A DNA stretch of 41,492 bases from an uncultured bacterium (GTDB lineage Bacteria > CSSED10-310 > CAZUFC01), in assembly GCA_964619725.1 (NCBI GenBank), contig CAZUFC010000073.1:1-41492 (forward strand). The letters are read 5' to 3'. Below, one piece after another: positions 33,319 to 41,492 of this stretch. A program made the position numbers and the translations under genes. The first letter of the stretch is position 1. Every line of letters begins with the position of its first letter. Below the pieces are notes generated by a model. It saw only the letters and a program-made list of their open reading frames with translations, was not told the DNA's origin and made no database searches.

Positions 33319-34245
33319 TCAGAGGCTTTCGCAAGCTTCAATAACCCTTCTGATGATCGCTTCTGCCATGGGAACGGGCAGAGCGTTTCCTGTTTGTCTT
33401 CGCGTCTGGTGATCGCTGCTTACTATGCGGAATTCATCCGGGAAACCCTGCAATCGAAGCATCTCTCGCGGCGTCAACCGTCTTTCGCCGTTTACCAGGA
33501 GGTAATTGTATGAAGCTCCGGCCCTGAGTGCGCAGGAATAAGGATAAGCGCTGATGTGGCCTGATTTGTTTTCATGCCATATAGTCGGTTTTTCGGTCGG
33601 TTTCAAGACGCTGTGACGTTTTTTTCTGATGTATTCCGATACGAAATATTTTTGGGGCGGCTCAGGTTCCAGAATTTCATCCAGAGATTTCATCGGAATT
33701 CCGCCGTTAGGCCATTCGAAACGAACGGGGCGGTCGAAACCCGCGATGAATATCCGTTCCCGTTTCTGCGGCAACCCGAAATCAAGCGCATTCAATACCC
33801 TGTAATCAGTCCGGTAACCCAGATTCCTCAGCACATCCAGAATTCTCGCCAGAGTGCGCCCTTTATCATGTCCCGCCAATTGTTTTACATTTTCCAGAAC
33901 GAATGCTCCAGGTTTCTTCGCCTTTAATATCCTCGCAATATCGAAAAACAGCGTGCCCCGTGTGTCGTCAAATCCTTTTCCTGTTCCGATAATGCTGAAA
34001 GGCTGGCACGGAAACCCCGCCAGCAGAATATCTTGATCGGGAACATCCGAAGCGTCTATAACCGTAACGTCGCCCGCAGGCCGCTCACCGTAATTGACCT
34101 CATACGTCTTGCGGCATTCATCATCAATATCGCTTGAAAAAACGCAGTCTGCCGTACGTCCCGCTTTACGTGCCGCCGCTTCCATCGCAATTCTGAATCC
34201 GCCTATGCCGCAGAAAAGATCAATGTATCTGATGGTTCGTTTCAC
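33319..34245 (-). CDS. dcm: DNA (cytosine-5)-methyltransferase, orphan
   Basis: DLFCGIGG, AGFPCQPFS, ENV, QKRERIF, RRLTPRE..RLQGF and QTGNA motifs; GTG start. Confidence 0.93.
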   Translation of the reverse strand: MKRTIRYIDLFCGIGGFRIAMEAAARKAGRTADCVFSSDIDDECRKTYEVNYGERPAGDVTVIDASDVPDQDILLAGFPCQPFSIIGTGKGFDDTRGTLFFDIARILKAKKPGAFVLENVKQLAGHDKGRTLARILDVLRNLGYRTDYRVLNALDFGLPQKRERIFIAGFDRPVRFEWPNGGIPMKSLDEILEPEPPQKYFVSEYIRKKRHSVLKPTEKPTIWHENKSGHISAYPYSCALRAGASYNYLLVNGERRLTPREMLRLQGFPDEFRIVSSDHQTRRQTGNALPVPMAEAIIRRVIEACESL

Positions 34246-34633: not shown

Positions 34634-37201
34634 TCAATATCCCCATCCGAAAGTCCAGTCGTCCCAGTCTCCGAACAGTTCTGTTCTGTCTCTGCCGGTC
34701 ATAGCCGCATACCAGACTATGCCTGATGCGGCGCCGGCATCGGGCGGCCAGGCGAATTCATCCAGGACCTGTATTTCAGTAAGCCCCGGCGTCAGATTGA
34801 TCAACGTGTAATAATCGTAATCCGTGAAGGAAGGAGCGAAATAATACACGCCGAATACGTCGAGAATGACGAACAGTGGAATTCCATCGTAAGTTTCAGG
34901 TCCGGGATTACAGACATAGACCTTGCAACTGCAGGGATGCCCCTGCTGGTAATAATGAGCGGGCATCCATAAGGAGACGCCCAGCGGACCGCATGCTTCG
35001 GTGGGAGTCGGCGGAAGGGATGTAGGAGTAATCGGTCCGGGCGAGACCGTCCCGGTGACGATCGGCGTTACAGAAGGCGGTGGAGTCGCTGTCGGGGGCG
35101 CTGGAGTGGAAGACGCGACGGCAGTCGGCGATTCGGACGGCAGCGGGGTCTCTGTCGGCGGAGGGAAAGTGGGAATTGATGTGGGCGTGGGCGGATATTC
35201 CACGGAAATGTATTCAATGTTCGTTATTCTGTTATACGCCGTAACGGTTAAGGTTAACGTCGTCTGCGCAGGCAAAGGTTCAAAAGCTAACGTGACGCAA
35301 CCGGTTTCATCCGTATAGTCCGATGCTGTAATGCAATAATCTTCAGAAAGGCACGCCAGGGCATTTTCCAGTCCTGCGCATACTTCAAATTCGGTATCGC
35401 CGATGTAAATCGATTCGGCATGCGTTATTTCCATCGCTTCAGGCGTATCCGTCCTCACCTGCAGAGATGCGTCGCCTAATATCTGAAAGGATTGAAAAGT
35501 TTTTTCGCCCCTTGCTCCATAAAGGTCTATGGAAAAACAAGCGCCGTTGTACATCAGTCCGCCGAAGGACTGAACGCTTTCATTCGTCAATAATTGTACC
35601 ATTTCATACATGGCGGCCTGAGGCGAAGCATAGTCCAAATCTGCAGACGACGCATAGACGGCAATTCCGCCCACCGGAGCGCCGTTTTCCGTATTGGTCG
35701 CTCTCATGAAGGCTTCAGCCAGGGTATCGTCAATTTCAAATTGTCCCAGATAGGGAGCCCCCAGGAAAATAAAAGGAAGCTCGAATTCATTCATTAAAGA
35801 ATAGATACAGTCTATGGTCAGGTGTCCTTCGCTGGGCGTTCCCGGAGGTACGGTAAAGGAGCTTTCGCAATCGCCGTGGGAACCGGTATTGAGTATCCCC
35901 CGGCCGTCGTTGACCGCATCCAGAAAGTCCTGCAGGGGGACAGGAGTTATGGCAAACGGCGGCGTTCCCTGTTCGTAAAGCTGATCGACCTGTGTATATG
36001 TATATTCCAGCAGCTCGCCGCGCAGTAATTCCGCCAGGTCGACATCGTTCAGCCCCAGGTATCCGTATCCTTCTCCCCAGACTGAGGCGAGTCCGGTTCC
36101 CTGGTGGAGCCAGCCTCCTCCATCGATATCGCGTTCGTAATATATGGTCCTTTCAACCTGGGTCATAAGCTCATCGACATTTCGTGCAGAAAATCGCCCT
36201 ATAAACAGATCGGGATAGGAATCATCGCCGTCGACAAGGGAGTATGCCGGGTCTGACACGGCCTGGCCCGGACAGAAATCCCGGTCGATCCTCAAGGTCG
36301 GAACCTGCGGCTCGTCCCCAACAAGTTGCACGAACGTCAAACCGTCATTCATGTCATATTGCGACTGAATAAACGCCCGGATGTCCTCGGCGCTCGAACC
36401 CACAGACGACGCTTCATATGCATCGGTTCGTATCCCCTTCTGACGCTTCCAGTCGATGTAAGGCTGAATAGCGGACATGAATTCATCATAATATATCACG
36501 ATCATTCTTCCCTGTTCTGCAACAGGCTCGTAACGGTCCTTTTCGAAATTAACAAATCGGCGTCCGTACATGTTCTTGAAATAACGATTGCATTTTCCCT
36601 TTTTAATAATTCCGGTGACCGACTCCCAGGGAACTGAAAATTCGACGCGTAAAACGATTCGATGATAAAAACGCAAAAGATGCTCTGCAGGATTAATAGC
36701 AAACGGATATATCCTCAACGTAATCCCCTGGATATCCCTTAAAATATAGCGATTCCCGATTTCAACGCACTCAGCCGGATAAAATTCATCCTTTTCGTAA
36801 ACCTCCTCGCACAAATAAGATACATCGGCAGGATCGACTTCCCGGGAAATGAATCCTTTAGAAGGAGCAATCCTCATCCTCATCTCTCTGTATTGCCGGT
36901 CGATCACTTTTACCTTCGCATCCGCATCCCGGGGCATTGCAATGCCGCGAGCGATTGAGGGCAATGCGGGGTAACCCCGGTCATGAGCGACAGCCTCTCC
37001 GGGTATCATGATTTTATGGAAATTAACTCCCTCTATCGCTGCCGGTTCCTGACTGAATTCTTTCACTATGCATTCAATCAGAACTGAGTGATCATCAGCC
37101 GATAAAACGTTGACTTCACATGCCGGCATGGCGGAAAATACGCTCTCCGACAGACCGATCAAACAAAAAAGCCCAAACATAATCGTGTTAATTCTATTCA
37201 T
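34634..37201 (-). CDS. Gingipain-like peptidase family C25 protein (propeptide, catalytic domain, Ig-like domain, P/T linker, C-terminal domain)
   Basis: Signal peptide; IAPSKG, EFYP, WKRQKG, LVGD, SDPAY, GRFSA, ERTIYYE, SHG, LGDASL.VRT motifs. Confidence 0.88.
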   Translation of the reverse strand: MNRINTIMFGLFCLIGLSESVFSAMPACEVNVLSADDHSVLIECIVKEFSQEPAAIEGVNFHKIMIPGEAVAHDRGYPALPSIARGIAMPRDADAKVKVIDRQYREMRMRIAPSKGFISREVDPADVSYLCEEVYEKDEFYPAECVEIGNRYILRDIQGITLRIYPFAINPAEHLLRFYHRIVLRVEFSVPWESVTGIIKKGKCNRYFKNMYGRRFVNFEKDRYEPVAEQGRMIVIYYDEFMSAIQPYIDWKRQKGIRTDAYEASSVGSSAEDIRAFIQSQYDMNDGLTFVQLVGDEPQVPTLRIDRDFCPGQAVSDPAYSLVDGDDSYPDLFIGRFSARNVDELMTQVERTIYYERDIDGGGWLHQGTGLASVWGEGYGYLGLNDVDLAELLRGELLEYTYTQVDQLYEQGTPPFAITPVPLQDFLDAVNDGRGILNTGSHGDCESSFTVPPGTPSEGHLTIDCIYSLMNEFELPFIFLGAPYLGQFEIDDTLAEAFMRATNTENGAPVGGIAVYASSADLDYASPQAAMYEMVQLLTNESVQSFGGLMYNGACFSIDLYGARGEKTFQSFQILGDASLQVRTDTPEAMEITHAESIYIGDTEFEVCAGLENALACLSEDYCITASDYTDETGCVTLAFEPLPAQTTLTLTVTAYNRITNIEYISVEYPPTPTSIPTFPPPTETPLPSESPTAVASSTPAPPTATPPPSVTPIVTGTVSPGPITPTSLPPTPTEACGPLGVSLWMPAHYYQQGHPCSCKVYVCNPGPETYDGIPLFVILDVFGVYYFAPSFTDYDYYTLINLTPGLTEIQVLDEFAWPPDAGAASGIVWYAAMTGRDRTELFGDWDDWTFGWGY

Positions 37202-37618
37202 GATACTTCCTCTTTCCTGTAATTATTACAGCCTCGGTTGTTCTTCCTTCATTTATATTATGACATTTCGAATCGAAAACAAAATATCGCGGAAGAAAAG
37301 CAATCAGGATTGAAACAAACGAACAGTTAATTCTTCAACAAGGAAAAACAGGTAAGAATCAAAATAGTCCATTGCGGGTCCAAATTCAAACAAAGTCAAT
37401 TGGAAAAATCCTGATGACCGGAACATTGCGCATAGAAACGACGACTGAAAACTTGCATCCGCATCAAAATCGAGCGAAACTCGAAAGACAAATATTTGAT
37501 CAGGACCATTGTTGCTCTCAAAGCCTCGATAGAAATTGCCGACTGGTTGCGGGGATAAGATAGACATTTCGTTGACCTTTAATTCGCCGATACAGCTCAG
37601 GGTGATCGGAAACCTTAA

Positions 37619-37724
37619 TGGAAAGCGGCAGGATGCCGCTTCTACTTTCACTTCGTTCTTTTTTTCGGATTTATGCGCGTATCTATTTGGTTTTTTTAAT
37701 CTAAACGCGGCATCCTGCCGCGTT
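37619..37724. repeat. REP doublet (second copy)
   Basis: TGGAAAGCGGCAGGATGCCGCTTCTACTTT is identical to 26-55; inverted partner AACGCGGCATCCTGCCGCGTT at 37704-37724. Confidence 0.8.
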
Positions 37725-37957
37725 CCGTATAGCTTTAGGCAAACCCCTCCGCTGTCGATCCGAAGCTGAGGTTCGCGATGAATCCCCTAACTCAGGCCGT
37801 TAAACGGTAAACGGCTGCCGTAAATTCGTTAACGCAGTCAGGCAAAGATACTTGACGCAGCGCATATGACTGATGTTCCCCAGCGGTTAATTTCAATCTG
37901 CTAACGTTCGGTGTTGCTAATTTGCCGGCTTAAATTCGGAATATTTCCGCGAAGGGA

Positions 37958-38929
37958 ATGCAAACAGAAAACAACACTCAAAACTCATCAGTGGTACTGC
38001 TTGATCCACCGCCCAAACCCCAACTTTCCCGAATATCTCAATTCCAGGCACTCATCGATCAGTTCATCGCATCCCAGGACATTGCCAAATCATCCAAGGA
38101 GACTTACCGGAAAGCCCTCAAACAGTTCGTTTCCTGGTTGGATGAAACCTGTCGCCTGGATCACCCTTCGCAACTCCAGCGGGAAGATATCCTGGCATAC
38201 CGGGATTTCCTGAAAGCTGAGAATCGCAGCTCGTACACAGTCTCGAATTATCTGACACCGGTTCGCAAGCTCTTCGAGTGGCTGGAATCGGAGAAAATCT
38301 ATCCAAACATCGCCAGGAATGTGAAAGGTGCGAAAAAGGCGCGGGGATTCCGGAAGGACTGCCTGACACCGGAACAGATTCGGGAAGCCCTGGATTCCAT
38401 CGACACATCGACTCAGGATGGATTGAGAGATTATGCTCTGTTCAATCTCCTGGTGCGAACCGGTCTTCGTACGATTGAGATTATCAGGGCAACCGTTGGG
38501 GATGTCCGGCAGCAGTCAGGCGAAGCGGTTCTCTGGATTCAGGGAAAAGGTCGAGATGACAAAGATGACTTCGTGCTGCTTTTGCCGGATGCCCTTAGGC
38601 CAATCAACCGATATCTGGCATCAAGGGGGAAGCTATCTGCTAATGATCCCATGTTCTCATCTCACTCCAACCGGAATAACGGCACCGCCCTCACAACCCG
38701 AAGCATCCGCCGGATCATTAAAAACATCCTCCGATCAATAGATATCGACAGTGACCGGTTATCAGCTCACAGTCTCCGGCACACAGCGGTTACTCTGAGT
38801 ATCAAGGGCGGAGCCACCCTCCAACAAGCCCAGGCAATGGCACGGCATTCCGATCCCAAGACCACGATGGTCTACTTCCATAACCTGGATCGGATTAATT
38901 CCGGTGCTGAACGGTTCATTCAGTTCTAA
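37958..38929 (+). CDS. Tyrosine recombinase/integrase
   Basis: N-terminal core-binding domain; catalytic TGLR, GKG, AHSLRHT, ARH and TTMVY residues all present. Confidence 0.93.
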   Translation: MQTENNTQNSSVVLLDPPPKPQLSRISQFQALIDQFIASQDIAKSSKETYRKALKQFVSWLDETCRLDHPSQLQREDILAYRDFLKAENRSSYTVSNYLTPVRKLFEWLESEKIYPNIARNVKGAKKARGFRKDCLTPEQIREALDSIDTSTQDGLRDYALFNLLVRTGLRTIEIIRATVGDVRQQSGEAVLWIQGKGRDDKDDFVLLLPDALRPINRYLASRGKLSANDPMFSSHSNRNNGTALTTRSIRRIIKNILRSIDIDSDRLSAHSLRHTAVTLSIKGGATLQQAQAMARHSDPKTTMVYFHNLDRINSGAERFIQF

Positions 38930-39190: not shown

Positions 39191-40489
39191 CTACCGGAAC
39201 CAAGACTTTGAAGATTTTTGAAGTGATGAGAAAGCGTCCAAGACATCTCTGTATTCTTTTTGAAGTAAGTATTGATGAACTTTGGACCGACGGGCTATAT
39301 CGATCGCACCTATTGCATATTTCACGCTGTTTTTCGGGTTATTTTCTTTGAACGAGTTAATTTCATTCAATCTTTCTTGAAAATACATTATATCGTCGTC
39401 AAATCGTTCGATCAGATATGAAACGAGTTCCTGCTGTCCCTTTAAAACTTGTTTTTTACTCCTGATAATTGCCATTTTACTGGCCAATCCATTTGAAATT
39501 GATTCCAACAACCCATTGGATGCTTCAATTAACTTAACTCCGACCTTGTTAGATGCACGAGTGTTTTTGATTATTGATATCAGATTTCTGGATTGCGTTG
39601 CCGCCATTACAGCGATGACTCCCCCAAAAATAACTCCTCCTGCTGGTCCAAAAATCAAGACGCCCACTCCCTTACCAGCGAAGCCACCCAACACGCCAAG
39701 TGAACCTTTAACAGTGACATCAGCAGCAATGTTGGCGATTGCATCAACAATTGAGACATCACTTCGCCACCAGTCATGGACATTACGTACAGAGCTGATT
39801 ACTGCTGCAAACAGTGGGATTTCATAATCCAGAATTTCTGCGCCAGCTTCCAGGGATGAGGAAGTAATTTCAGATATCGTTTCAAGATCGAATCCCTCCA
39901 CGAAAAAAACAAGATCAGCCCAGTCTTCACCACTGTCAGTTATAGATTGAGCCAATTCCGCATTGGCAAATACTGGAGTTTCCGGGTAGTTATCAAAATG
40001 GTGTTCAATACCGTTTAGAGATGAAAGACATTTAATCTGAAACTCCTGCCCATCCACAACAATATCGAATCCTGCTTCATTCGGATTATTCGGAAAACTT
40101 ATCTGATTACCCTGCTCCAGTAGTTTTGATGCAACATATTGTTCAGCCACATAACCCTTTAAACTTGAAAACGCACCGTCAGCAGCAGCTTCATTCATGT
40201 CACTTAATCGATCAGCAAAGAAACCGAACTCAAACACATTGTCCAGGTCTTCGGCACGACTGAAATCCGCAGCTTGTATAGCAAGAGGGTTAACTGATGC
40301 GATGTCATAGACAAAATCACCGAAGGTAAGACCAGCAAGAGCAATATTTTCTTTGATATATGTTTTTTGACCAAATAATGCGGATTTTAGATTGTTTTCA
40401 TCTCCGCTGTCGATTGTTTCCCCCAGAGCACTTTTAAGACCTTGATTTTTTATAGTCTGATGCAATTTTTTCTTTAATCTTTCATTCAT
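39191..40489 (-). CDS. Hypothetical protein: PD-(D/E)xK-like nuclease motif, glycine-zipper hydrophobic segment and C-terminal helical region
   Basis: KGYVAE...AGFDIVVDGQEFQIK; GSLGVLGGFAGKGVGVLIFGPAGGVIFGG. Confidence 0.7.
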   Translation of the reverse strand: MNERLKKKLHQTIKNQGLKSALGETIDSGDENNLKSALFGQKTYIKENIALAGLTFGDFVYDIASVNPLAIQAADFSRAEDLDNVFEFGFFADRLSDMNEAAADGAFSSLKGYVAEQYVASKLLEQGNQISFPNNPNEAGFDIVVDGQEFQIKCLSSLNGIEHHFDNYPETPVFANAELAQSITDSGEDWADLVFFVEGFDLETISEITSSSLEAGAEILDYEIPLFAAVISSVRNVHDWWRSDVSIVDAIANIAADVTVKGSLGVLGGFAGKGVGVLIFGPAGGVIFGGVIAVMAATQSRNLISIIKNTRASNKVGVKLIEASNGLLESISNGLASKMAIIRSKKQVLKGQQELVSYLIERFDDDIMYFQERLNEINSFKENNPKNSVKYAIGAIDIARRSKVHQYLLQKEYRDVLDAFSSLQKSSKSWFR

Positions 40490-40495
40490 ATTGCT

Positions 40496-41491
40496 CTAAT
40501 CCTGTGCACTTAGCTGCCTGTATTTTTCCAGATATCCCTCTGCATTGGGATAGGATTCAGAAATAAATCCCTTTTTAATTTTCGATAGTGTTATGTCACC
40601 GATATTTAGCATGTTTTCTTTGGAGAAAAAATCGGATGGCTGTTTCTTCCTATTTATTTTGTTTTGAGCTTTGTCCAAAATACGTGACGGGACATGCTGA
40701 TGGAAGTCCCTGAAAACGTCCAACATTGGATCGGGATTCAAGTTGTTTTCGGCAATAGCCTTTATTGTTAAAATTGATGCTATCGCAACTCCGAAAGCAC
40801 CACTTAGTTTCTTTGTCAAATTACCGGCAATAAAAACACCTCCAACAAGCACCGCTGGAATAACCAAAAAAGGATTTGCGAGGACAGCCATCGTGCAAAC
40901 CAGTGTCTTCCCTCCGACAAGAGGAATAATCGCAGATGCTTTTGCAGCTAGGATGTATGCAGAGAATCCTGCTAATTCAACCGCTATTCCAAAGCCGATC
41001 AAACTTCCCGAACTTATCAAGAGTTTCAATGCAGCGGAATCCGATAACTCATCAACACCCAGTTGATCCAGTAATTCTTTTTGAGCTTCTGAATCCAGTT
41101 TTGAGACAGTTGTCTTAATTTTCGTGACCAATTCATTTTGAAGATCATCCGGAATATCCCCCCTCTCAGCTGCGCTGGCAATCAATCGCAGCACATTCAT
41201 CTGAACGACTTCCGGAAATGAGGGATTATTCAAACGATGCCTTGAGAAGGGATTTAACCGATACCTGGCGTATTTTTTCCAGTATTCTTCGGTAAAAAAT
41301 CCGGTTTTTTTCGCCGCTTCATCATCAAGTGTTTTGGCAAAAAGGATTTTGGATTGTTCAGCAATATCATTTGTAATATCGTCTAATCCTCTTCGGGAGA
41401 ATGTCATTTGAGGCTTTAATCCGAATCCTTCCCTGAGGTGTATATTCTGGACCAAAGATGCCGGCGATTCCGGTTTAAAGATGCCGCCCAT
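40496..41491 (-). CDS. Hypothetical membrane-associated protein (YaaW/UPF0174-like hydrophobic hairpin); probably 5'-truncated by the window
   Basis: Long ORF reaching the window edge; hydrophobic run GSLIGFGIAVELAGFSAYILAA...AVLANPFLVIPAVLVGG; 6 bp from the next gene. Confidence 0.65.
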   Translation of the reverse strand: MGGIFKPESPASLVQNIHLREGFGLKPQMTFSRRGLDDITNDIAEQSKILFAKTLDDEAAKKTGFFTEEYWKKYARYRLNPFSRHRLNNPSFPEVVQMNVLRLIASAAERGDIPDDLQNELVTKIKTTVSKLDSEAQKELLDQLGVDELSDSAALKLLISSGSLIGFGIAVELAGFSAYILAAKASAIIPLVGGKTLVCTMAVLANPFLVIPAVLVGGVFIAGNLTKKLSGAFGVAIASILTIKAIAENNLNPDPMLDVFRDFHQHVPSRILDKAQNKINRKKQPSDFFSKENMLNIGDITLSKIKKGFISESYPNAEGYLEKYRQLSAQD

Positions 41492-41492
41492 T

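Follow-up and report, generated by a model that had tools for sequence, protein, structure and literature searches.

The stretch of DNA analysed here (the window; 41,492 nucleotides, the entire contig C73, CAZUFC010000073.1, of an uncultured bacterium of the lineage CSSED10-310) ends in two minus-strand open reading frames (ORFs), at 40496-41491 (upstream) and 39191-40489 (nuclease), separated by 6 bp. They belong to a protein family in which an upstream half resembling JukA and YaaW is usually fused to a predicted PD-(D/E)xK nuclease. By analogy with JukAB, we suggest, with a probability of about one half, that the family is a Juk-like anti-phage system with a nuclease effector. A role in defence of some kind is probable and is supported by the embedding of the genes in restriction-modification (R-M)-type operons and by the JukA-like upstream half. 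The sequence-only reading of the window had already proposed a candidate defence or toxin system without having seen the JukA-like half. The local copy is damaged, and it is the family rather than this copy that is the object of interest.

The upstream ORF contains a long hydrophobic hairpin, as had been noted from the sequence alone, with a hydropathy peak at residues 152-247. As the PADLOC JukA model matched this ORF weakly (E 0.0036), homology to JukA/YaaW was tested with a profile of 18 sequences from E. coli yaaW, plasmid genes and viral loci. HHalign comparison of this profile with 219 N-terminal halves (N-halves) of the family gave a probability of 87.0 (E 4e-6, 116 columns), and comparison with six N-halves of a distant clade gave 95.5 (E 1.6e-8, 132 columns). 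The controls scored 0.3 (reversed), at most 0.26 (ten block shuffles) and 17.2 (the nuclease half). A search of 15,606 targets, including all six-frame ORFs of at least 150 aa of the 9.2-Mb genome, with the JukA/YaaW HMM placed the window's upstream ORF at the head of the list (E 8e-6); N-halves filled 83 of the top 100 places, though they made up only 220 of the targets. The alignment reaches past the hairpin into both flanking helices. These comparisons of sequence profiles suggest that the upstream half likely shares ancestry with JukA/YaaW, the relation being likely one of remote homology and not of family membership.

The 432-aa protein encoded downstream is very likely an active nuclease. 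Its predicted model contains the alpha/beta core of the restriction endonuclease fold, and its neighbours in fold comparison are PD-(D/E)xK nucleases. The residues of the predicted active site are nearly invariant: E116 is kept in 143 of 144 homologues, D142 in all 144, Q151 in 141 and K153 in 143, and all four positions are kept in 108 of 108 fused homologues. The sequence-only reading had recognised a PD-(D/E)xK-like nuclease here, correctly placing KGYVAE at 40142-40159 and the end of QIK at 40031; its D-x9-QxK spacing was one residue too long, the motif being E116...D142-x8-Q151-x-K153. The nuclease half is also predicted, from hydropathy, to associate with the membrane. Its hydropathy peaks at residues 273-298, within a Gly-rich hairpin (hydropathy 2.19) that was modelled with low pLDDT and in which G268, G276, G281, P282 and G284 are kept in 135-139 of 144 homologues. 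Likeness of the C-terminal hairpin to a dynamin paddle (BDLP, E 0.012-0.086) and a match of a single homologue to LeoA/LeoBC (E 4e-6) were weak and probably generic. Frameshifts or breaks were seen in the nuclease half at nine loci (L014, L032, L035, L050, L065, L068, L072, L077 and L081); these may fit a costly gene, and assembly errors are possible.

The sequence-only reading had proposed modelling the complex of the two proteins, and the co-fold supports binding of the halves to each other through the C-terminal bundle of the nuclease. A full-length relative of the upstream protein (65% identical), folded with the window's nuclease, gave an ipSAE of 0.71 compared to 0.00 for the best of three controls; the ipSAE mark used is reached by 116 of 157 solved pairs and by 2 of 215 mismatched pairs. 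The runs share at least 36% of contacts, with a partner pLDDT of at least 68, and the predicted contacts join upstream residues 106-111 and 402-405 to nuclease residues 365-379.

The two halves travel together, as expected of the pair. Among 68 GTDB loci found from the upstream half, 65 have both halves; in 61 of these a single ORF holds the two (54 full fusions of ~800 aa and 7 partial ones), 4 are split and 3 are upstream-only. Of 57 metagenome loci, some of them redundant, 52 have both halves (49 fused, 3 split), and 4 of the 5 upstream-only loci stop at a contig edge. Most homologues are thus one fused protein, and the two-gene design taken from the window is not the norm. The profile of the nuclease half found 1,042 relatives at E<=0.001 in a 50%-identity library, and the upstream half lies in the same chain in 77 of 153 nuclease relatives examined. 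The window's close relatives are split, directly seen in L001 and deduced for three further pairs from contigs of identical length. Since the fused protein P0034 is the sister of the split L001 (FastTree, no clade test), fusion and fission appear to recur. In a distant clade (L163, L164) the pair is again split, with a 4-bp overlap. Still more distant relatives (L150, L151, L165, L166 and L171) have an N-terminal hydrophobic helix and no JukA-like partner, and keep the nuclease and the hairpin. On this distant branch (L165:5235-8165, L166:4035-10528, L150:4769-8757), two copies have CRISPR-associated neighbours (CARF-sigma54 ATPase; Cas_APE2256), and one copy is preceded by an EcsC gene.

The distribution is patchy. 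The family was seen in 0 of 13 other genomes of the phylum to which the window belongs. Sampling of 1,519 genomes from five further phyla (centre genomes excluded) gave 10 positives at E<=1e-20. Cultured strains carry intact one-gene versions, annotated plasmids gave two partial matches and annotated phages none. A sequencing run of a different study contains a 95%-identical copy of 39603-41437; no RNA holder was listed.

Genomic neighbours were scanned with PADLOC for up to three ORFs per side in loci L001-L060, leaving out L061-L068 and the metagenome loci. Eight of the 60 loci are embedded in R-M-type operons: five have type I hsd genes on both sides (L007, L015, L047, L048, L053), and three are flanked by an SNF2 helicase on one side and a type IIG methylase on the other (L014, L017, L058). 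Embedding in R-M, BREX or DISARM operons is argued to predict defence in the text consulted of Payne et al. (10.1101/2024.01.29.577857). Other loci adjoin CBASS, Hma/Tiamat, type III R-M or AbiE genes. Type I, IIG or III R-M subunits flank 12 of 60 loci compared to 0 of 20 control stretches (p 0.02), a comparison in which the category was picked post hoc, kin loci are not independent and the control stretches are arbitrary. Among co-oriented genes directly upstream of the fused gene, the most frequent encodes a predicted RNase with NYN and OST-HTH (LOTUS) domains; it occurs in 7 of 68 loci (L019, L020, L026, L030, L033, L037, L046). A fused copy on an IMG/VR contig (L070:4729-7218) is carried by a prophage-like element, with a LexA/CI-like repressor on one side and a serine recombinase on the other. 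On a Citrobacter plasmid (L180:492-3678), an extended gene of the YaaW family (404 aa) occurs together with a WYL gene and a gene for a large unannotated 'membrane protein', possibly another JukA-effector variant.

If the family works as JukAB does, the JukA/YaaW-like half would gather where phage DNA and protein enter and sense infection, the two hydrophobic hairpins would insert into the membrane at the entry site, and the tethered nuclease would be unmasked and cut incoming phage nucleic acid. The same analogy leads to the tentative proposal, a little short of an even chance, that the nuclease cuts the invader where it enters and does not kill the host. An unlikely extension concerns nucleus-forming jumbo phages: a single chain would find the early infection vesicle with its JukA-like domain, open it with its hairpins and destroy the restriction-inaccessible genome with its nuclease, without JukB or host nucleases. 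Two results weigh against the JukA link. The PADLOC JukA model matched 0 of 18 aligned members and nothing in a genome search, and DUF3944 (PF13099) is absent from the full-length N-halves P0010, P0011, P0013, L163, L164, P0149 and P0065. Neighbours with any PADLOC hit are not enriched (30 of 60 loci compared to 10 of 20 controls, an uninformative comparison); the defence-island enrichment envisaged in the sequence-only reading was seen for R-M subunits, a post hoc category, and not for defence hits at large.

The best surviving alternative, though rather unlikely, is abortive infection, in which the triggered nuclease cuts host tRNA, RNA or DNA, the hairpins depolarise the membrane, or both, and the cell dies; in R-M operons the protein would then be a back-up, like PrrC. 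A non-defence role is distinctly improbable. Here the protein would be either a toxin accompanied by its antitoxin or chaperone, or a nuclease exported against other bacteria; the YaaW/Cbp3-like half would shield the hairpin, and the genes would be selfish mobile cargo. The resemblance of JukA-family proteins to the Cbp3 membrane-protein chaperone, the CdiA-like nuclease fold, the unenriched raw counts of defence neighbours and the transposases and serine recombinases that recur nearby (judged by eye) all fit such a role. Against it, the halves are fused in most genomes, which rules out an antitoxin that could be degraded separately, no secretion gene or small immunity gene is found among the 17 neighbour clusters shared by at least 3 of 68 loci, and insertion inside R-M operons is repeated. 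It is highly improbable that the JukA likeness is a chance match of hairpins, the upstream half being an unrelated membrane scaffold for a Shield- or SNIPE-like membrane-bound nuclease: the N-half largely escapes library HMMs and no Cbp3-like chain appears in the Foldseek and VIA fold lists, which barely covered it, but the composition-preserving controls reach at most 0.3%, the family's own Gly-rich hairpin only 17%, and the match extends to both helices beside the hairpin.

Locally, the two co-oriented ORFs are indeed AT-rich, with a GC content of 41.1% and 40.3% compared to 48.7% in window positions 1-37200 and 47.1% in the genome. The upstream gene is cut short at the contig edge by a 54-bp repeat, the end of an insertion sequence (IS) with multicopy ends, high depth and 5-6-bp target duplications. 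Exact copies lie at 7 contig ends and 1 internal contig site, and the read depth is 105 compared to 7.5 (roughly 14-fold that of the flank). Six other contig ends carry a second, related end type, with which four of the remaining six first-type ends can be paired via such duplications. The element has IS21-like ends and may belong to the IS21 family; a crude IstB motif scan printed nothing, the element interior being unassembled at these ends. Element ends also occur on contigs C4, C15, C29, C63, C76, C88, C114, C148, C233, C249, C292, C307, C319 and C340; on C88 the two end types are separated by ~100 bp, in what appears to be a miniature copy with an internal deletion. Because they are encoded in the repeat, the ATG and first 18 residues of the upstream ORF belong to the IS. 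Full-length homologues have about 400 aa, and the ~90 N-terminal residues that the gene lacks were not found elsewhere in the assembly, nor does an opposite IS end pair with C73. The upstream ORF is not intact, and the local copy is probably impaired.

The tyrosine integrase that had been linked to the pair is full length (Pfam PF00589, E 4.5e-23), as described, but does not precede it: it lies downstream on the opposite strand, its stop codon 261 bp from that of the pair. It was rejected as a part of the system, being convergent, and no tyrosine-integrase cluster was seen by eye among the shared neighbour clusters. On its 5' side, 37513-37959 recurs with 98% identity on contig C332, where a transposase-like fragment lies beside it. 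The same stretch of the window includes a short repeat present many times across the genome, with the depth reaching as much as 887 at 37600-37749. The integrase is adjoined by genes for a C-5 cytosine methylase (33319-34245), next to which no restriction gene was seen, and a gingipain-like C25 peptidase (34634-37201).

Table 1. Features of the nuclease pair and its immediate surroundings in the window.
Feature	Position	Strand	Description
XerC/D-like tyrosine integrase	37958..38929	+	converges on the pair; belongs to the local context and is not a conserved component
Effector half, 432 aa	39191..40489	-	helical N-terminus, PD-(D/E)xK-type domain (about residues 100-200), Gly-rich hairpin, C-terminal helical bundle
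C-terminal helical bundle	39197..39559	-	residues 311-431; residues 365-379 predicted to bind the upstream protein
Gly-rich hydrophobic hairpin	39596..39706	-	residues 262-298, FGPAG turn; predicted membrane-inserting
Predicted active site	40031..40144	-	E116 (40142-40144), D142 (40064-40066), Q151 (40037-40039), K153 (40031-40033)
Upstream gene remnant	40496..41438	-	313 residues left of about 405; corresponds to the N-terminal half of fused homologues
JukA/YaaW-like segment	40748..41140	-	ORF residues 118-248, includes the long hydrophobic hairpin
Terminal 54 bp of multicopy insertion sequence	41439..41492		truncates the upstream gene

If the Juk-like reading is true, the Juk sensor-effector family gains a widespread, unnamed branch missed by current defence finders, with more than 1,000 clusters at 50% identity carrying the nuclease half, and gains an effector not known from Juk, a nuclease of its own. 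Since degradation of phage DNA in JukAB is presumably left to host nucleases, a natural sensor-nuclease fusion would make nuclease delivery to the protected early phage compartment directly testable.

No named system covers both proteins in Pfam, NCBIfam, database names or PADLOC, in agreement with the sequence-only reading. Neither protein scored above cut-off in Pfam or NCBIfam, and relatives in sequence databases and the ESM Atlas are called 'hypothetical'; the Atlas gave side matches to YeeR_C and MamC clusters. Among the papers listed in literature searches, none was seen to describe the family and none contained 'PDC-M72', and Fig. S9 and Table S3 of the Juk preprint or the PADLOC candidate tables may already list the pairing; the family is likely unnamed and undescribed as an anti-phage system. 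The nuclease domain with the E...D-x8-QxK motif also occurs in component B of the PADLOC candidate PDC-M72 (E 1.9e-7, residues 93-195), but the B models span 168-193 positions and leave the hairpin and tail uncovered. PDC-M72A had no match on the partner, so with a partial B match alone the two-component rule for PDC-M72 excludes the pair. SNIPE/PD-Lambda-1 is a membrane-associated nuclease of the GIY-YIG family with an N-terminal anchor. It thus differs in nuclease family, has no JukA-like half and had no PADLOC match here. The CdiA-CT of Burkholderia pseudomallei (PDB 4g6v) is 12% identical, and neither a CdiA delivery region nor a CdiI gene is present here.

Shield ShdA is likewise a membrane-associated nuclease found in type I R-M loci, but as described in the text consulted (PMC11090510) it is RmuC-like, with an N-terminal anchor and no JukA-like half, and it had no PADLOC match here. 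Dionysus, compared by description only, also has a hydrophobic-helix effector, which acts on the EPI (early phage infection) vesicle of jumbo phages, but the text consulted (10.1101/2025.09.30.679545) describes three genes (MAEBL-TM, TerB and a pore-forming toxin) and no nuclease.

The closest comparison is with Juk. In the portion of the preprint consulted (10.1101/2022.09.17.508391), JukA goes to the infection site, recruits an effector and has varied partners, JukA-family proteins are similar to the membrane-protein chaperone Cbp3, and neither JukA nor JukB is given a nuclease. JukB is a pore former that acts on the early infection vesicle, and destruction of the DNA is presumably completed by nucleases of the host (PMC13282480, as far as consulted). 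Here the effector is itself a predicted nuclease, whose active site JukB lacks, and the downstream gene had no PADLOC match to JukB. The sensor half is remotely similar, about 400 aa compared to about 245, and lacks DUF3944; it is usually fused to its effector, whereas the fusions in the preprint text are to GTPase, patatin and coiled-coil domains. As in Juk, a JukA/YaaW-like gene stands directly 5' of an effector with hydrophobic helices, among R-M neighbours, and the same preprint text notes uncharacterised PD-(D/E)xK genes near jukA.
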